A stretch of 57,370 nucleotides of DNA, taken from positions 1-57,370 of IMG/VR virus record IMGVR_UViG_3300042468_000162, one strand, 5' to 3'. This document shows, piece by piece, positions 5,508 to 39,846 of this stretch. A program made the translations under genes and the position numbers. Positions within the stretch are counted from its first letter, which is position 1. Every line of letters begins with the position of its first letter. The stretch is from a virus (lineage: Duplodnaviria; Caudoviricetes). Under the pieces are notes generated by a model. It was not told the DNA's origin. It ran no database searches and was given only the letters and a program-made list of their open reading frames with translations.

Positions 5508-5856
5508 TAATGTATTTAATGACGATGATGTAGCACTTGTACTAAGTCCTAACTTTGAGAAAGACGGTACATGGACAGGTACATTAGATCTTAATATTGC
5601 TATCATGCCTGTAGATAAAGGCTCAGAGGAATCAATAGGGGCTATTGAAGAACTCACTAACATGATGATCACATGCTTTCGTTTGATCACTGAAGATGAA
5701 GAGTTTCATCATCAAGTTATGAAAGCAATGATTGAATACGTAGATCGTGGAGAGTTACTGGATCAAGATAAGTTAGATGAAGTGGAGCAGATGATAGGTA
5801 CATCAGACAATGTGTATAAGCTTAGTGCTTGGACTAAGACTAGGGGGAATGCATAG
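5497..5856 (+). CDS. Hypothetical acidic protein
   Basis: 119-aa ORF packed in the operon. Confidence 0.75.
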   Translation: MNPDNVFNDDDVALVLSPNFEKDGTWTGTLDLNIAIMPVDKGSEESIGAIEELTNMMITCFRLITEDEEFHHQVMKAMIEYVDRGELLDQDKLDEVEQMIGTSDNVYKLSAWTKTRGNA

Positions 5857-6105
5857 ATGGATATGGTCAATAGCCCTGCCCATTACAACATGGGTAAATA
5901 TGAAACAATTGATATTATTGTAGATACATTAGGGACAGAAGGTGCTATTGCTTATTGCCGTGGTAATGTACTAAAGTACACCATCCGCATGATGCACAAA
6001 AGCAAGCCACTTGAGGACGCACGTAAAGCCCAGTGGTATCTGAATAAGACAATTGAATTGATGGGGGCATTTAAGCCCAATGAAATTACAGGGGCACTGA
6101 AGTAA
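5857..6105 (+). CDS. DUF3310 family protein (T7 gp1.7-like putative nucleotide kinase)
   Basis: VNSPAHY...GNVLKY..R...K..ED..KA.WYL pattern. Confidence 0.85.
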   Translation: MDMVNSPAHYNMGKYETIDIIVDTLGTEGAIAYCRGNVLKYTIRMMHKSKPLEDARKAQWYLNKTIELMGAFKPNEITGALK

Positions 6106-6329
6106 TGAAACAACTCAAGTTATTCGATGAGATTGAAGATCTAGAAGATAGCACTGCCTATGCAGATGTTAGCTTTGTGGTTACATTCGATAAGAAAGAA
6201 ATGCCAACTGTATACACAGATATACTGTACCTTGAAGATGAGATTAAGGATGCAATCATCAATGCCATGCATGACATAGGTGCTACAAAGACTGACGATA
6301 TCATCATTAATATTGAGGGCTTAGAATGA
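6105..6329 (+). CDS. Hypothetical acidic protein
   Basis: Translationally coupled at both ends. Confidence 0.7.
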   Translation: MKQLKLFDEIEDLEDSTAYADVSFVVTFDKKEMPTVYTDILYLEDEIKDAIINAMHDIGATKTDDIIINIEGLE

Positions 6330-7693
6330 AAGAATCATTAATGGACTATCACGGTATACAGATTGATATCTCCCGTGATTGGTTACTGTCAGAGCAAGCT
6401 ACGCAGTTACTACAAGACTACTACATGCTCCCCGGTGAGAGGAGTCCACAAGAAGCATATGCTCGTGCTGCGTTAGCTTACTGTGGTCACAACAAACCAT
6501 TTGCACAGCGTATCTATGACTATGCATCTAAGGGTTGGTTCATGTTTGCCAGCCCCGTACTTAGTAATGCACCACGTGTAGGTGAGTACTTTAAGGCTTT
6601 ACCTATCTCATGTTTTCTTACATACATAGGTGATAACCTGACTTCCCTTGTAGATCACAATGCAGAAGTTGCATGGCTATCAGTAAAAGGTGGAGGTGTA
6701 GGTGGGCATTGGTCAGATGTACGTGGTGTCAGTGATAAAGCACCAGGACCTATACCTTTTATGAAAGTTGTAGATAGTCAGATGACTGCATACAAACAAG
6801 GCAAGACACGGAAAGGTAGCTATGCTGCGTACTTGGATATTAGTCACCCTGACATTGTTGAGTTTATTAATTTTAAAGTACCCACTGGTGGTGACATCAA
6901 TAGAAAATGCTTCAATCTATTTAACGCAGTCAATGTCACTGACAAGTTTATGGAAGCAGTAGAGAAGGATCTTGAGTGGCACTTGATTGATCCTGCTAAT
7001 AAAGATGTACGTGGAACAATAAAAGCTAGGGATCTATGGCAACGTATCCTTGAAGCTAGATTTCGTACTGGCAGTCCCTATATCAACTTCATTGACGAAG
7101 CTAACAGGCAGCTTAATCCACAGCAGAAAGCATTAGGTTTAAAGGTACACGGTAGCAATCTATGCAACGAAATACACTTAGCTACAAGTGAAGATCGTAC
7201 TGCAGTATGTTGTCTATCTTCTGTGAACTTAGAGAAGTTTGATGAGTGGGTAGATACAGATATGGTCTATGACCTAACTGTTTTCTTAGACAATGTATTG
7301 CAAGCCTTTATCGATAATGCACCACGTGAGATCCATAAAGCTATCCGTAGTGCAGAGGCAGAGAGATCGTTAGGCTTAGGTGCTATGGGTTTCCATGGTT
7401 ATCTACAAAGCAAAGGTATCCCATTTGAAGGGCTGTCAGCTAAGATTGCAAACATTAGAATGTTCAAACATATCCAAGAGCAAGCAATTAAAGCTACAAA
7501 GTCTATGGCAATTACAAGGGGTAACTGCTTAGACGCAGACGAAGTATTAGAGGTAAAAACAACAGATGGCAATTTTATTTTAAGTAAGAATCACACAGTT
7601 CTTGCAAAAAGAAAAGAGCAAGATATAACTTTGCTAGTTAAAGACTTGCAAGAAGGAGATGAAATTGTTAATTTGCAAAGTGTGCAGTATTGA
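6326..7693 (+). CDS. nrdA: Class Ia ribonucleotide reductase alpha subunit, N-terminal fragment with a foreign C-terminal tail
   Basis: ISCF, GGGVG, HPDI, NLCNEI (thiyl Cys), VCCLSS, LGLGAMG; lacks the YY pair and C-terminal CxxC; no ATP cone. Confidence 0.95.
   Translation: MKESLMDYHGIQIDISRDWLLSEQATQLLQDYYMLPGERSPQEAYARAALAYCGHNKPFAQRIYDYASKGWFMFASPVLSNAPRVGEYFKALPISCFLTYIGDNLTSLVDHNAEVAWLSVKGGGVGGHWSDVRGVSDKAPGPIPFMKVVDSQMTAYKQGKTRKGSYAAYLDISHPDIVEFINFKVPTGGDINRKCFNLFNAVNVTDKFMEAVEKDLEWHLIDPANKDVRGTIKARDLWQRILEARFRTGSPYINFIDEANRQLNPQQKALGLKVHGSNLCNEIHLATSEDRTAVCCLSSVNLEKFDEWVDTDMVYDLTVFLDNVLQAFIDNAPREIHKAIRSAEAERSLGLGAMGFHGYLQSKGIPFEGLSAKIANIRMFKHIQEQAIKATKSMAITRGNCLDADEVLEVKTTDGNFILSKNHTVLAKRKEQDITLLVKDLQEGDEIVNLQSVQY
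7526..7693 (+). other. Intein/Hint-like N-segment fused to the NrdA N-fragment
   Basis: CLDADEVLEVKTTDG..LSKNHTVL..VKDLQEGDEIV resembles the intein N3/N4 pattern (TxxH; LxxGD). Confidence 0.6.
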
Positions 7694-8027
7694 AAAACAA
7701 TATATAGATTTTCCCATAGCTAGTGTTACTAAAACAGGGAGGGCCGGAGAATGTAAAGAATGCAAGTCAGCTCGCACAAAAAAACTTAGGTCGGAAAGAG
7801 AAACGCTGCTATATGAGATGCTTTTAAAGCAGTGTAATATATGTAAAATGACACACAAGACACCTTCGTTTTTTGACTTTCATCACGTTGATAAAAAAGA
7901 TAAACATAGAGAAGTAAAACAAATACTATGTGGAGCCATTTCAACACTTTTGAGTGAAGTTAAAAAATGTGTGATGTTATGCCCTAATTGCCACAGAGAA
8001 ACCCACATAAAAGAAGGATGGAAATGA
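7659..8027 (+). mobile_element. Free-standing HNH homing endonuclease gene inserted in nrdA
   Basis: CxxC pairs, DFHH, LCPNCHRETH; AT-rich; separates the two nrdA fragments. Confidence 0.9.
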
Positions 8028-8590
8028 AAGTCTTAAGCGTTGAAAAAGTGTTGACAAGAAATATGCATTTAATCGCAGTGGCACCCAATGCTAATAGTAG
8101 TATTATTTGTGGTTGCTCTGCTTCCATTGAGCCTATTAAGTCTAACGCATATGTGCATAGAACTCGTGCAGGATCGCATCTGGTCAAGAACGTCTACCTA
8201 CAAAAGATCCTATATTCCATGGGCAAGGATACGCAAGAGGTATGGCAATCGATCATCATGAACGAAGGCTCAATACAGCATTTAGACTTTATAGATAAAA
8301 CAACTAAAGATATCTACAAGACTGCTTTTGAGATTGACCAGACATGGGTCATTGAACATGCAGCAGATAGACAACAGTTCATATGCCAGGGACAGTCTCT
8401 GAATCTATTCTTCCCTGCAGGTAGCCCCAAGTCTTATGTTAATGCAGTACACTTACGAGCTTGGAAATCTAAACTCAAAGGCTTATACTATCTACGTACT
8501 AGCGCAGGTGTACAAGCTGATAAGATCGGTTTAAAGATCGAAAGGAATGCATTGCAAGATGCTGAAGAATGTCTTAGCTGTCATGGGTAA
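8024..8590 (+). CDS. nrdA: Class Ia ribonucleotide reductase alpha subunit, C-terminal fragment
   Basis: RNxHLIAVAPNANSS, SIEP, QGQSLN, GLYYLR, terminal CLSCHG; RBS AAGAAGGA and ATGA overlap with the HNH stop. Confidence 0.93.
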   Translation: MKVLSVEKVLTRNMHLIAVAPNANSSIICGCSASIEPIKSNAYVHRTRAGSHLVKNVYLQKILYSMGKDTQEVWQSIIMNEGSIQHLDFIDKTTKDIYKTAFEIDQTWVIEHAADRQQFICQGQSLNLFFPAGSPKSYVNAVHLRAWKSKLKGLYYLRTSAGVQADKIGLKIERNALQDAEECLSCHG

Positions 8591-9038
8591 ATCTTCTGAA
8601 GGTGGTAGTAAACGAAAACGATTCAGTAAAAGTTTGCATAGTGAGAATGATACACCCGCAAGGGCTGCAGCTATGCGGTACTGGAAAGCTTTAGGTTACA
8701 ATGTCTACGAGAACACTAACAATCATATACCTGATTTAACTATAGAGACAGAAAATGCAAGATTCTACAGTGAAGTTGAGGTTAAAAGGATATGGAAGGG
8801 AGAGGATTTTCAGTACGATACCCTACAAATACCTGAAAGGAAGCGAAAGTATACAGGACTTGATCTTCCGTGTACTTTCATGGTATTTAACAACGAACAG
8901 ACTCTCGTATTTCTCTGTGAGAGCAGCACACTTGTTACTTCCCCCATAGTAGAAGTGCCTAATAAGTTCGTACCTGAAGGGGAACTATTCTTTCAAGTCC
9001 CCATTAAACGTGTTAAATTAGCGAGGGTTCCAGTGTAA
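8583..9038 (+). CDS. Hypothetical protein, possible PD-(D/E)xK nuclease
   Basis: PDL...EVEVK motif; start at ATG 8583. Confidence 0.55.
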   Translation: MGKSSEGGSKRKRFSKSLHSENDTPARAAAMRYWKALGYNVYENTNNHIPDLTIETENARFYSEVEVKRIWKGEDFQYDTLQIPERKRKYTGLDLPCTFMVFNNEQTLVFLCESSTLVTSPIVEVPNKFVPEGELFFQVPIKRVKLARVPV

Positions 9039-9421
9039 TGAATAAAGATGCTATCATTAACCAGCTTGAAAGGATCTATGCTAACCTAGTGGCACTAGGA
9101 ACTTATTATTTCCATGAGCATTGTGAATACAATAGTAACTATGCAGCTACTGGAGATATTGATACTGTAGAATTTGGATTGTGGGATGCAGAATTACGGA
9201 TTAAAGAAGTTATTCAATTGTTAGAAGAGTCATATGGAGCAAGCAATGGATTCAGAGATGCCAGAGATTTTAATGACACGGAATCTTGGGAAACATCCAA
9301 GTGGACTTACGATGCAGGAATGGCTATGGCCTTTCAAGACTGCGGAACAGAGAAAGCTAGTAGCAAAGTATCACAAGAAGATTCAGAAGCAGCAGCGCAA
9401 GAAGCAATTAGACGATATTGA
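9038..9421 (+). CDS. Hypothetical protein
   Basis: TAATG-coupled start; 3' half overlaps the 9234-9437 ORF. Confidence 0.55.
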   Translation: MNKDAIINQLERIYANLVALGTYYFHEHCEYNSNYAATGDIDTVEFGLWDAELRIKEVIQLLEESYGASNGFRDARDFNDTESWETSKWTYDAGMAMAFQDCGTEKASSKVSQEDSEAAAQEAIRRY

Positions 9422-10269: not shown

Positions 10270-10296
10270 GGGCACTTTCATAGTGCCCTTTATTTT
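10270..10296 (+). terminator. Intrinsic terminator-like hairpin
   Basis: GGGCACT-ttcat-AGTGCCC followed by TTTATTTT. Confidence 0.65.
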
Positions 10297-10318
10297 CCCC
10301 TTTAACTTTGGAGTATCC

Positions 10319-11305
10319 ATGTCTGTAACAGCACCAAATACAACGTACAAACCCTTCACTTACCCATGGGCTATGGAGTATGCAGTTGAATCTGAAAAAG
10401 CTCACTGGGGGGAATGGGAAGCTAAGTTACAAGATGATGTAGCACAGTGGCAGAATGGCAAGTTGTCTGCCCAAGAAAAAAATCACATCACTCAAATCCT
10501 ACGATTGTTTACGCAGAGTGATGTAGCTGTAGGTACAAATTACTTAGAGCACTATGTACACAAATTTAAGAACAATGAAATCAGAGCTATGCTTACTAGC
10601 TTTGCTAATAGGGAGTTTGTTCATCAGCGTAGCTATGCCCTATTAAACGACACACTTGGATTACCAGAGGAAGAGTACTCAGCCTTCCTAGCATACAAGC
10701 AAATGCGTGATAAGATCGATTTCATGACACGAATAGATACCCATAGCCATGAAGGATTAGCGAAGGCTGTAGCTCGTTCTGTGATGAATGAGGGCATGTC
10801 TTTGTTTAGTGCCTTTGCCATGCTCTTAAATTATCAGAGATACGGTAAGATGAAGGGTATGTGTGAGATTGTTGAGTGGTCTATCCGTGATGAATCCATG
10901 CACTGTGAAGGTATGGTTAAACTGTTCAGGGAATTCTGTAAAGAGCATCCTCGTATTGTCACAGATGAATTTAAGAAAGATATCTATCAAATGTTCAGAG
11001 ATGGTGTAGCACTTGAGGATGCAGTCATTGATGGTGCATTTGAAATGGGTGGCATACAGGGCTTGACAGCAGATGATGTAAAAGGGTATATTCGCTACAT
11101 AGCAGATAGACGTTTAATTCAGCTAGGACTTAAGGGTAACTGGGGAGTTAAAACTAATCCGCTAGAGTGGCTTGATTGGATTGTTTCGGGTGACACACTG
11201 AAGAACTTCTTTGAGGGTGTAGTAACCGATTACAATGCAGCTGGTATGGTAGGTGATTGGGGATGGAAACACAATGAACCAGAGAAACACAAACTTGCAG
11301 CGTAA
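10319..11305 (+). CDS. nrdB: Class Ia ribonucleotide reductase beta subunit
   Basis: W...E, SDVAV, EFVHQRSY (Tyr radical), NEGMSLF, DESMH, NFFE; GGAG RBS before ATG 10319. Confidence 0.96.
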   Translation: MSVTAPNTTYKPFTYPWAMEYAVESEKAHWGEWEAKLQDDVAQWQNGKLSAQEKNHITQILRLFTQSDVAVGTNYLEHYVHKFKNNEIRAMLTSFANREFVHQRSYALLNDTLGLPEEEYSAFLAYKQMRDKIDFMTRIDTHSHEGLAKAVARSVMNEGMSLFSAFAMLLNYQRYGKMKGMCEIVEWSIRDESMHCEGMVKLFREFCKEHPRIVTDEFKKDIYQMFRDGVALEDAVIDGAFEMGGIQGLTADDVKGYIRYIADRRLIQLGLKGNWGVKTNPLEWLDWIVSGDTLKNFFEGVVTDYNAAGMVGDWGWKHNEPEKHKLAA

Positions 11306-36669: not shown

Positions 36670-38280
36670 TTAGTATCCAAAAGTGCGGTCAGCTACACTC
36701 ATACCGCTACGCTGATGTGCGGGATCATAATCCCATAAACTGCTTCTAGGTCTGCTCATAACACCATATCGTAGTGCATCGTATAAGTGATCTTCAGACT
36801 TTGTATTAATATCTTCAGGGTTTGATTTATCAAGGGGTATAACAGGAAGCTGTGCAATCAGGTTTGTACAGTTGTCCATAATCACAAGTCTAGGCTCTTC
36901 AGTAAAATCATCCAGCTGCAAGCGTCTATGTATCTCATTTTTACCTGCTACACGAGAACCTGCACTACGATCTGCTGGCCTCCACCTACAACCCTCGGCT
37001 ATCATCTGCTCAGCCAATGAAGGACCAGTATCACCCCTACGATGCCAACAGGAAGAATCAAGAACACCATAGCGGATCTGTCCATCTTCTTGTTCAATAT
37101 TCAATATCATCTTGGCAAGGTCTTTAGCTAGTATTTTACTAACGTACAATTCCCTATAAACGACAAGTTGTTCCGCTGGAGTCACTGCAAACCACAATAC
37201 TGCTGAGTAAGAACCGTATCCATAGTCACATGCCCTGAATCTAGCCCAGTTACTGGGTATTTTTTCATGTTTAATGACATGAATGCGCCTGTTGAACTCT
37301 GGAAATGCAGCACCTTCGGCTACATCCCAGTTCCCTTCCAGCAATTGTTTACGTTGGTGTTCAGGGAGTGACAAAAGCATAGTCTCATAGTCACCACCTT
37401 CAGCAAGATAGGGGTTATCTGAGAGCATAGCAGGTATAAACCTGCGTTTAAACAAAGGTTGACCCTCTTTACTGTGACCTTTTGGGTACGAAAGTGTGTC
37501 ACCTGTCTCTATGTCGGTAGCCCAGAACGCCCTACCAGCAGGACTAGGGTCAATAAACATCTTTTTAACCCACACATGACCTGGACCACCTGGGTTTGTA
37601 GTAGCTCTCATGTAGGTAGGTAGATCTGGTGCGGTACTCCGCAAGCGAGAACGCATGTAATTCCATGCAAATGGAGTTGACCACTGCGTCAATTCATCAA
37701 AACCTACCCAACTAAACGAGAGTCCCTGATACCTCAGTACATCCTCATCACGATCCAAGTAAGAAAACCACAGTCTTGCTCCACTTGGTGCCTGCCACTG
37801 CATCTTTCTCTCGGACCATTTGATCCCAGGATAGATTCTTGGGTACAATTCCTGACTTTTCCAAATCAGTTCCCTTAATTCTTCTGTTGTATGTCGCAAT
37901 AGTAGCCCACTAAACTGTGGATGTCCCATATATCGCATGGGATCTGCCAACATTGCATATGATTTACCTCCACCTGCAGCCCCACCATACAGTACTTCAC
38001 GCTCACTTGCAGCTAAAAAGAAGGACTGTGGTCCTGCGTTGGGCTTAAATATTACATTATTATCCTGTTGTACTTTCTGTATGAGTACTTCTTGCCTTTG
38101 TATCTCCTCCTTGTTTAAAGTCTGGATCGAGATGTCTGGCACTTTCGACGATTCTTTTGGCTTGGTTGTAGATTTTTGTACCTTTTTTGTCTTCGTACTT
38201 TTCCGCAAGCTCAAGGGCTTCTTTGTACCTTCTGGCCCATGACCTAAGTAAGCTAATTTTGGCTCTTCTTTGTCGCTCAT
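36670..38280 (-). CDS. Terminase large subunit
   Basis: YGGAAGGGKS (Walker A), FDELT (Walker B), ATTNPGG, CDYG, EDHLYDALRY. Confidence 0.95.
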   Translation of the reverse strand: MSDKEEPKLAYLGHGPEGTKKPLSLRKSTKTKKVQKSTTKPKESSKVPDISIQTLNKEEIQRQEVLIQKVQQDNNVIFKPNAGPQSFFLAASEREVLYGGAAGGGKSYAMLADPMRYMGHPQFSGLLLRHTTEELRELIWKSQELYPRIYPGIKWSERKMQWQAPSGARLWFSYLDRDEDVLRYQGLSFSWVGFDELTQWSTPFAWNYMRSRLRSTAPDLPTYMRATTNPGGPGHVWVKKMFIDPSPAGRAFWATDIETGDTLSYPKGHSKEGQPLFKRRFIPAMLSDNPYLAEGGDYETMLLSLPEHQRKQLLEGNWDVAEGAAFPEFNRRIHVIKHEKIPSNWARFRACDYGYGSYSAVLWFAVTPAEQLVVYRELYVSKILAKDLAKMILNIEQEDGQIRYGVLDSSCWHRRGDTGPSLAEQMIAEGCRWRPADRSAGSRVAGKNEIHRRLQLDDFTEEPRLVIMDNCTNLIAQLPVIPLDKSNPEDINTKSEDHLYDALRYGVMSRPRSSLWDYDPAHQRSGMSVADRTFGY

Positions 38281-38966: not shown

Positions 38967-39365
38967 TTAATCCCTGTAAGGTCGAACCTTCTTAGCAATA
39001 GCCTTTGGTTGGCTTACAAATTGTTTACCCTGCTTTGTACCTTCTCGTTTAGCTTTAGTTGTAGCTGCGTATTCTGCAGGTGATAGGGCCTCTCTAGCTT
39101 TCTTTGGTAAGTATCTTTCACCTGTAGCTTGTGGACCTTGTGTGGAAGGTTTACCTGACTTAGTTCCCCAATCTTCTTTAGTCCACTTACTGAGACTCTT
39201 TTGGGCTTTAGTCTTTTCTCCTGTATACCCACCGCCTTTATCTTTGTAAATCTTACCTGCTAACTGTGCTTTCCTAGCTGACCATTGACCTGCGCTTCCA
39301 CCTTTAGTACTGGCTTTTACTTGGGCCACTACTCTGTCCCATAATTTTTCATTTGATCTAGGCAT
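38967..39365 (-). CDS. Conserved basic phage protein
   Basis: GQWSARKAQ, GGGY, TGERYLP motifs. Confidence 0.8.
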   Translation of the reverse strand: MPRSNEKLWDRVVAQVKASTKGGSAGQWSARKAQLAGKIYKDKGGGYTGEKTKAQKSLSKWTKEDWGTKSGKPSTQGPQATGERYLPKKAREALSPAEYAATTKAKREGTKQGKQFVSQPKAIAKKVRPYRD

Positions 39366-39846
39366 AAGTGCTTACCTTTTTGCACAAGTTAACAAATTCA
39401 ATGAGAGACAAATCCTGTTTACAATTATTAACTTCCCAGGTAGTTAACACTACATTAGTTTTTACATACCCCTTACTTGAATCTATTCTATCTACAGACA
39501 AAGTTTTTTTACTTCCTGCAGACACTTCTAAATCATCACCTGTGTACTTACATTTTCCGTTTTGCTGCGTATACAGCTCAATTAAAAAATAAAAATCAAA
39601 ATCTAACTCTAATGATTTTTGACGTACCCTTCGTTGCAAATAAGAAAATATTCTTTTGCAGGCTCTTTCTAGAGTTGTTGGGCCTTTTCTATAGACTTTA
39701 TTTCTTTCATTGTTACAGTCTTTACAATAAGACATGTATCCTGTTTTTTGATTTTTATTTGCTGTAAATTCCGTTATACTTTTACTTTGTTTGCACGTGC
39801 TACAAGCCTTAGCCTTTTCCCATAGCTTTTCGTTAGTGCGTCCCAT
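39358..39846 (-). mobile_element. Free-standing HNH-like endonuclease, paralogous to 30937-31485
   Basis: CSTC/CKDC, QQNGKCKYT, SVDRIDSSKGY..TNV; AT-rich. Confidence 0.88.

Follow-up and report, generated by a model that had tools for sequence, protein, structure and literature searches.

A class I nrdA gene of a freshwater phage divided by an HNH endonuclease gene with probable split-intein flanks

In the Aeromonas phage Aeh1 the class I ribonucleotide reductase (RNR) gene nrdA is reportedly carried as two genes, termed nrdA-a and nrdA-b, with mobE between them, an arrangement that Friedrich is said to have described in 2007. To our knowledge, Aeh1 is so far the single studied case of an RNR of this kind. 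The sections of a later study that are drawn on here (Crona 2011, PMC3045599) report that this RNR is rebuilt from its endonuclease-split pieces without splicing, NrdA-a and NrdA-b assembling into an active (alpha-a/alpha-b)2 beta2 holoenzyme, and that the tails at the break are essential, activity falling about 2000-fold on their deletion, with a role in the dimerisation of the heterodimers and not in the binding of a to b; the tails are described there as being without a database match, and section 16 only speculates that they are intein remnants. Another kind of locus, the fractured genes that combine split inteins with a free-standing endonuclease gene, NrdA-1 to NrdA-7 among them, is set out in the corresponding part of Dassa 2009 (PMC2677866). 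Here we analyse the nrdA locus of the window, by which we mean the whole stretch of 57,370 base pairs (bp), a complete viral record (IMGVR_UViG_3300042468_000162; Duplodnaviria, Caudoviricetes) with direct terminal repeats, traced by its sequencing runs to lake and other freshwater samples. Its nrdA is divided into an upstream gene (nrdA-N, product N) and a downstream gene (nrdA-C, product C) by an HNH endonuclease gene.

We think it likely that a mobile cassette homed into nrdA and left a non-spliced, two-chain alpha subunit whose assembly is aided by remnants of the cassette. The site would have been the linker between the RG and RN motifs of a short-form class I nrdA, and the cassette would have brought in a free-standing HNH gene between two pieces of split intein, ahead of it the final ~45 residues of an N-intein and after it the initial ~10 residues of a C-intein with its own ribosome-binding site and ATG. 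The outcome would be two separately translated chains. N has the three catalytic cysteines; the substrate-phosphate loop lies on C, as do the YY radical-transfer pair and the redox CxxC. Together with NrdB the two chains would most likely join, without covalent linkage, to form a working alpha subunit; the non-splicing remnants, an acidic distal tail on N and a basic head on C, would probably still pair, holding or orienting the chains. That the two-chain form is active, that no splicing occurs in vivo and that the remnants serve as a clamp is what we infer from the evidence below. A more specific proposal, which we put forward tentatively, is a portable gene-fracturing cassette whose intein remnants, the anionic distal half of IntN and the cationic first strand of IntC, make up a "capture" module that serves as an inbuilt clamp of a non-covalent kind; a single homing event would then convert an intact essential gene into a working two-chain enzyme.

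The divided nrdA and its undivided relatives

Four plus-strand genes make up the locus in the list of open reading frames (ORFs): nrdA-N, the HNH gene, nrdA-C and, after three or four small ORFs, nrdB (coordinates in Table 1). The division of nrdA into two genes by an HNH gene, as the original prediction had it, is confirmed by Pfam, NCBIfam and PHROGs (phrog_2255). All three catalytic cysteine motifs (PISCF, SNLCNEI, TAVCCL) lie on N, their cysteines being the equivalents of C225, C439 and C462 of the Escherichia coli enzyme as these are named in the relevant part of PMC3045599, and C carries GLYYLRT, with the YY pair, and the terminal CLSC; this is the partition that had been foreseen, with ISCF, NLCNEI and VCCL on one piece and the YY pair and terminal CxxC on the other. 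Pfam places N on Ribonuc_red_lgN and on positions 2-336 of the 523 of Ribonuc_red_lgC (E 5.5e-73), and C on positions 378-523 of the latter (E 1.6e-38). On the 604 positions of NCBIfam NF006577, N covers 10-416 and C 418-603, with 520.8 and 228.2 bits against a one-chain cut-off of 620. Since the two chains are complementary over positions 10-603, no conserved part of NrdA has been lost, and the predicted intactness of both pieces holds, as does that of nrdB (NF007186, 381.8 bits); only both chains together reach the profile coverage of a short-form class I RNR alpha chain with all its catalytic motifs. Among solved chains the closest are 6dqw and 6dqx, both short alpha chains, which we take to be class Id enzymes.

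C has start signals of its own, again as anticipated: its ATG (8024-8026) overlaps the HNH stop TGA (8025-8027) as ATGA, with a GAAGGA Shine-Dalgarno (SD) sequence 5 nucleotides (nt) upstream, and this arrangement is kept in a diverged split locus, L089, introduced below. The longest open frame of nrdA-C begins farther upstream, at TTG 7988, and holds ATGs at 8018 and 8024.

Counts of related loci refer throughout to the best 80 related IMG/VR viral loci. Their nrdA is uninterrupted in 76, split in one (L005), and cut short by the end of the contig before the junction in the other three; nrdB is kept in the uninterrupted relatives wherever the contig extends far enough. Alignment with these undivided genes, in which ...RG and RN... 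are joined by a linker of just 10-12 residues, places the replacement in that linker and nowhere else: on the N side stand NCLDADEVLEV and a tail of 45 amino acids (aa), on the C side an 11-aa head, and the net insertion is 504 nt. Neither tail nor head occurs in the 76 uninterrupted relatives. The linker peptide NCLDADEVLEV is itself similar to the native linker of the uninterrupted NrdA of Vibrio phage Vp_R1, where C401 is also found, and from D405 it aligns as well with the N-intein of L104, one of two fractured genes described in the next section.

The HNH gene led to L089, which carries the cassette at the same codon with an HNH protein 67% identical, on an nrdA backbone only ~76% identical in DNA; its tail length is within 2 aa of that in the window, and the SD-ATGA start of C is kept. 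The metagenome contig L098 is a twin of L089 (99.97% identical). A metagenome scan with the HNH alignment (at least 596 pattern matches) yielded, among the matches listed, only L098 and an unrelated HNH locus (L099); a DNA pattern scan gave only two split contigs among viral contigs, both already found, and no match among genome contigs. The tail profile, searched against 1.84 billion representative proteins, had seven matches at E<=0.001, of which P0001 is the only real relative and supplies a third tail variant; P0002 and P0007, considered as tail relatives, were rejected as low-complexity repeat proteins, and of the other four matches three list 5-8 matched stretches and P0004 none. Megablast of 6326-8590 against GenBank phages found no match. 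One undivided homologue, in Methylophilales phage Melnitz (L001, MZ577098, 2450-4273), is annotated as a "vitamin B12-dependent" reductase; it aligns end to end with the class I-type alpha chain, YY pair included, and a NrdB match (59% identity, annotated as a hypothetical protein) lies ~470 nt downstream. The name given in MZ577098 looks like an annotation slip.

Split-intein ancestry and the question of splicing

A search with the three tail variants, through a pattern containing LQEGDE, led to two IMG/VR contigs that are bona fide fractured genes with split inteins. In L104 (2506-5137) a clamp-loader N part with a 119-aa N-intein is followed by a TnsA-like endonuclease gene and then by a 38-aa C-intein, ending in THN with C as the next residue, and the clamp-loader C part; in L105 (1513-3946) a class II RNR-like N part with an N-intein of ~106 aa is followed by a 35-aa C-intein, ending in SHN with T as the next residue, and the C part, and no endonuclease gene lies between the intein halves. 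Under BLASTP the tail matches the L104 N-intein at 22 of 48 residues (46%, E 2e-9), inside the region that Pfam assigns to Intein_splicing in L104 (E 9.4e-13, above cut-off), and the L105 N-intein at 19 of 44 (43%, E 8e-7). These pairwise E-values are optimistic because of the LQEGDE preselection; over 149 candidate stretches tblastn gave 1e-7 and 2e-5. All five aligned sequences have LQEGDEI unchanged. The N-inteins of L104 and L105 also end in the DLQEGDEI motif of the tail, in nearly the same nucleotides, AAGGAG included. In both lineages the tail frame is free of stops while the other two frames have 3-4, and the heads are like the first strand of a C-intein (in L089 VKGIRNV beside IKHIRSV and IKSIRKL; in the window MKVLSVEKV beside MKIKSIRKL).

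Structure prediction points the same way. AlphaFold2 folds the tail within N as a five-stranded beta domain, with a predicted local distance difference test (pLDDT) score of 67-82 over residues 411-450, and the tail alone again as five strands at a mean pLDDT of 78. With the tail model, Foldseek returned nothing at E<=0.001 (E 0.87 or more), with inteins at 10 of the first 15 ranks; VIA-align against 48,161 chains placed intein, Hint or BIL domains at all of ranks 1-26 (Z 4.7-2.8), the contiguous matches covering roughly intein residues 45-120, and the nearest named clusters in the ESM Atlas carry Intein_splicing, Hint_2 or PT-HINT. PHROGs gave nothing for the 45-aa tail alone and, with the preceding NrdA helix, only phrog_579 (unknown function, E 1.2e-4), and a protein homologue search with residues 396-455, in the near-length class only, had no match at E<=1.

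We take the alignments to show that the tail derives from a split intein, as the distal half of its N-intein; the head resembles the first strand of a C-intein and probably shares that source. The surviving segments are those that adjoin the endonuclease gene in a fractured-gene locus, and the endonuclease gene may have moved together with its immediate intein flanks. Short similarities at the junctions (DEV on the left, T-[KR]-N on the right) hint weakly at microhomology on both sides. An alternative origin is that an intein once present at the nrdA site decayed in situ.

Could such an intein still work? That tail and head form a functional, unusually small split intein joining N and C by protein trans-splicing is a reading to which we give very little credence, even though the tail is homologous to real N-inteins, the head is similar to C-intein starts, N and C share a frame, and the window keeps SKNH, which resembles what we take to be block B in the naming of intein blocks as A, B, F and G. 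Just ~51 + 10 residues are available, against 106-119 + 35-38 in the inteins of the relatives. The homology begins only at N-intein residue 55 (L104) or 67 (L105), about 54-66 residues with the N-terminal splice block having been lost, and of the 35-38 C-intein residues ~10 are kept, the last 25-27, with the penultimate His and terminal Asn, being gone; neither blocks A, F and G nor the residues of the splice junctions are present. The head ends in VLT before RN in the window and in VLK before RN in L089, with neither a terminal Asn nor a conserved +1 nucleophile, and the His of the block-B-like motif is lost in L089 and P0001, two of the three tail variants. Pfam finds no intein in N or C. 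Because the catalytic parts and the junction residues are absent, protein splicing is very unlikely.

Splicing at the RNA level is just as hard to credit. The insert would then be an HNH-carrying self-splicing intron and the mRNA would be spliced to an uninterrupted nrdA message, which would suit the frequency of group I introns with HNH ORFs in phage RNR genes and the RNA-level splicing of HNH-interrupted genes in ICP1 phages (in the part of PMC10448857 cited here); covariance models, moreover, can overlook ribozyme cores broken up by an ORF. Against it, Rfam cmscan over 5800-9200 found no group I or II intron at E<=10, in keeping with the original prediction that the insert has no group I core; the HNH ORF is flanked by only ~100 nt upstream and 27 nt downstream, and both stretches are read into conserved peptide with homology to inteins; and the SD and ATG of C, coupled to the HNH stop, are its own and are conserved. 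An HDV-like Rfam match on the minus strand was dismissed as chance level (E 3.8, 18 bits versus a gathering score of 44). Two translational detours were likewise rejected: a frameshift fusion of N with the HNH protein, the 35-nt overlap having no slippery site, and ribosomal bypassing of the insert, the gap being over 330 nt.

Mobility, selection and the HNH gene

The window and the intact allele L006 have no mismatch over 6506-7413 and 8087-8590, and their differences are confined to 7414-8086; the split allele L005 is ~10% diverged from the window across the locus and has only 2 mismatches within 7455-8157. Identity with L006 outside and the match to L005 inside mean that the window is an L006-like genome with an L005-like cassette and short co-converted flanks. 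The cassette moves as a unit between near-identical phages. The mosaic would be the expected footprint of homing; exchange in the reverse direction, that is, loss of the cassette, would fit it alike. Base composition sets the cassette apart, with a GC fraction of 0.337 where the flanks have 0.41-0.42. X2, an independent run of lake DNA, holds a 778-nt contig identical over 7339-8116 and another contig that joins 7522 to 8087, as in the intact allele, and loose ends in two further runs read intact-allele sequence. On this evidence near-isogenic split and intact alleles coexist in the same water; the split allele is present in lake DNA runs of several studies, from 2020 to 2024. The block that is identical between the window and L089 at the start of the C core (Table 1) is a candidate endonuclease target or immunity region. 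A second recombination boundary lies at 6326-6505, where 24 of the initial 180 nt of nrdA are unlike those of L006, with no further difference over the next 900 nt.

Comparison of the window with L089 indicates that both nrdA cores and the HNH gene are under strong purifying selection between the two lineages, the proportions of changed nonsynonymous and synonymous sites (pN/pS) being 0.195/0.78 in the N core, 0.14/0.82 in the C core and 0.21/0.87 in the HNH gene. A model of N with C reached an interface score (ipSAE, the interaction prediction score from aligned errors) of 0.93 in all three runs, the best of three controls giving 0.00, on a scale where 58 of 80 solved complexes and 2 of 110 mismatched pairs come up to the mark; own alignments make these counts rough here. 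At least 92% of contacts recur between the runs, the pLDDT of the partner is 82 or higher, and the modelled interface takes in tail residues 407-415, 418, 427, 438-439, 441-447 and 450 and head residues 1-22. In both lineages the net charge is -3 in the distal tail, which is acidic (pI 4.1), and +1 or +3 in the basic head, charges that match the recognition of an anionic IntN by a cationic IntC in split-intein capture, as described in parts of PMC11766414 and PMC2677866.

That the split nrdA is instead dead, a selfish insertion having inactivated it in phages that use the host ribonucleotide reductase, with pieces intact only because the event is recent, strikes us as unlikely. The flanks of the window are identical to the intact allele, so decay would be invisible yet, the split allele is rare (1 of 77 loci with the junction on the contig), and pN/pS in the tail is not clearly below 1. 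The cassette, however, has diverged to 67% amino-acid identity in its HNH protein, on backbones that differ as stated, and both lineages keep an open tail frame of the same length, the SD and ATGA start of C, and N and C cores that are intact; nrdA is kept by each of the 76 uninterrupted relatives, with nrdB wherever the contig reaches, and the split allele recurs in the lake runs across the years given.

A number of observations nonetheless weigh against a functional two-chain subunit held together by intein remnants. The intactness of the nrdA pieces in the window is no proof of function, because the insertion is so recent that there has been no time for decay. Tail residues 411-444 have a pN/pS of 0.32/0.41, and in the distal half synonymous sites are also conserved, so that the conservation of the tail would fit nucleic-acid signals of the HNH gene (see below) as well as a role of the protein. 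The pass of the complex model may only reflect likeness to solved one-chain NrdA, and, by analogy with Aeh1, whose tails serve the dimerisation of heterodimers and not a/b binding, a simple clamp may be the wrong role. Two runs labelled as RNA (X16, probably DNA, and X18) do not cover 7542-8073. As to ancestry, besides the optimism of the pairwise E-values, the structural Hint-like matches are weak one by one (Z below 5, Foldseek E 0.87 or more), Pfam at E<=10 finds nothing on tail or head, and sequence searches of the PDB with the tail and with its three-sequence profile gave chance-level rows only.

The HNH protein matches phrog_2255 ("HNH endonuclease", E 5.3e-23); its CPNCHRE..H matches McrA (6ghc, E 0.0088), and the DFHH, N and H columns are invariant in the family alignment, Pfam giving no HNH model above its cut-off on this protein. 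L089 has ACG in place of the ATG at 7659 and keeps AAGGAG, 6 nt and TTG (window 7665), so the gene probably starts at TTG 7665. Three DNA blocks of the tail are conserved between the window and L089, TTCTTGCAA (7599-7607), GATATAAC (7622-7629) and TTGCAAGAAGGAGA (7646-7659), of which the first and third make up the 9-bp stem of a hairpin ending at the HNH SD, with a minimum free energy of -14.3 kcal/mol in the window (z -2.07) and -19.5 kcal/mol in L089 (z -3.56). Inside the hairpin lie a -35-like TTGCAA (7602-7607), a 16-nt variable spacer and a -10-like TATAAC (7624-7629), an element read from its conservation pattern alone and unlisted by a sigma-70 scanner that demands T at the last position of the second hexamer. 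We infer hairpin and promoter control of the HNH gene; similar control by a hairpin and a promoter is described, in the relevant parts of PMC2677866 and PMC3045599 (Figure 5 legend), for mobE and the endonuclease genes at fractured loci.

Relatives of the HNH protein 38-44% identical to it are encoded by free-standing genes in the nrdA-nrdB spacer of L051, L053, L064 and L091. Further homologues (33-47% identical over the whole set) lie directly after a DNA polymerase gene (L090) and between primase-helicase and DNA polymerase genes (L095); a homologous HNH gene inside a true split intein was sought, and the six more distant relatives (L090-L095) are all free-standing and intergenic. A second nuclease gene of the window, at 39358-39846 (minus strand), matches phrog_1035 (E 1.8e-31) and is of the endonuclease VII / His-Me finger type; it lies ~1 kb from the large terminase gene (36670-38280), and its product shares weak similarity with the nrdA HNH protein in the N-terminal zinc ribbon (E 0.0025). 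Downstream of the split, the last 44 nt of nrdA-C are shared with a 163-aa ORF (8547-9038) that has neither a Pfam nor a PHROG match and has a homologue in the same place in L089 (3847-4362). A terminator-like hairpin (10270-10288; 7 pairs, then a T-rich run) lies at the GTG start assigned to nrdB, whose true start may be a few codons downstream.

Table 1. Features of the nrdA locus in the window
Feature	Coordinates	Strand	Details
nrdA-N ORF	6326-7693	+	455 aa
nrdA-N core, residues 1-399, ending in ...TRG	6326-7522	+	76 of 76 uninterrupted relatives align to its end
Exchanged segment: cassette and co-converted nrdA flanks	7414-8086	+	outside as L006 (intact allele); inside as L005 (split)
Linker NCLDADEVLEV, residues 400-410	7523-7555	+	transition zone from NrdA-derived to intein-derived
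C-terminal tail of N, residues 411-455, and stop codon	7556-7693	+	distal half of phage split N-inteins by homology; predicted five-stranded Hint-like beta domain
Conserved RNA hairpin	7599-7658	+	9-bp stem 7599-7607/7646-7654; abuts HNH SD GGAG 7655-7658
HNH ORF	7659-8027	+	122 aa; frame other than that of nrdA; probable real start TTG 7665
Start region of C	8013-8056	+	SD GAAGGA 8013-8018, ATG 8024, 11-aa head MKVLSVEKVLT; head like first strand of phage C-inteins
nrdA-C	8024 (ATG)-8590	+	188 aa; same frame as N
nrdA-C core	8057-8590	+	RNMHLIAVAPNANSS to terminal CLSC; holds YY pair and C-terminal cysteine pair
39-nt block identical in window and L089	8060-8098	+	differs from intact alleles at 8 consecutive codons; synonymous sites otherwise saturated
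nrdB, intact small subunit	10283-11305	+	340 aa; Ribonuc_red_sm E 6.7e-71; NF007186 381.8 bits (cut-off 237)

Comparison with known systems

As in Aeh1, a free-standing HNH gene divides a class I nrdA into two genes that are translated separately, the downstream piece overlaps the end of the HNH gene, the insert is AT-rich and there are tails at the break; intron or intein splicing, absent from Aeh1, is very unlikely here. As with mobE of Aeh1 and T4 (in the part of PMC3045599 concerned), relatives of the HNH gene normally sit between nrdA and nrdB; the spacer copies listed above and T4 mobE are intergenic beside a whole nrdA, unlike the HNH gene of the window. The cuts differ: in Aeh1 it falls right after GNLCIEIALPT, between the C439 and C462 equivalents and ~150 residues upstream of the present one, whereas here all three cysteines are on N and the cut is in the RG...RN linker. 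BLASTP finds no similarity between the HNH protein and Aeh1 MobE (237 aa). Because the site differs and the HNH protein is unrelated to MobE, the fracture is independent of that in Aeh1, as had been proposed together with its place before the RN motif, and the initial reading of an independent, non-spliced fracture is supported by the sequence comparisons. Charge polarity is reversed in Aeh1, where the a-tail is basic and the b-tail acidic (according to that part of PMC3045599). Unlike those of Aeh1, the tails here have an identifiable split-intein origin, and the cassette is seen moving between near-identical genomes; activity is shown only for Aeh1. The intein-remnant tails, the mobility of the cassette between near-identical phages and the conserved, putative HNH expression signals inside the tail go beyond the original prediction.

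L104 and L105 belong to the fractured genes of the kind collected by Dassa, with which the window shares the order of N-extein and N-intein, endonuclease gene, C-intein and C-extein, the homology of tail and head to such halves, a hairpin upstream of the endonuclease start, and an acidic N part with a basic C part. It differs from them in that nothing of the inteins is left but the segments beside the endonuclease gene, without catalytic blocks or junction residues, and in that the endonuclease is HNH, not GIY-YIG or Vsr-like; in the part of PMC2677866 at hand, moreover, the NrdA inteins sit just N-terminal of the thiyl cysteine and not at the site in the window.

The topoisomerase genes 39/60 of T4, split by mobA (PMC3045599, section 16), are similar in combining an essential enzyme, a homing-endonuclease insertion and tail-like extensions. 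Both the enzyme and the endonuclease are other than those of the window. We know of no intein homology for the gp39 and gp60 tails. The first non-intein structural match to the present tail (VIA-align rank 27) is the central domain of T4 topoisomerase II (8yo3_C, residues 480-543), at Z 2.7, too weak to interpret.

The locus suggests a general route by which selfish endonucleases may break essential genes without killing the host genome, and it warns annotators that such pieces are not to be called pseudogenes; it also points to a small natural protein-association module of possible use in protein engineering and, if the remnants do act as a clamp, to a natural minimal (~45 + 10 aa) intein-derived heterodimerising tag. 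As an independent second case beside Aeh1, it adds to that kind a traceable split-intein origin, natural mobility of the gene-splitting unit and recurrence in at least two diverged phage lineages, and it makes the speculation on intein remnants in the Aeh1 tails directly testable. Should the clamp reading be true, the locus would be a missing link between the fractured genes with split inteins and the "tails" of the Aeh1 type.

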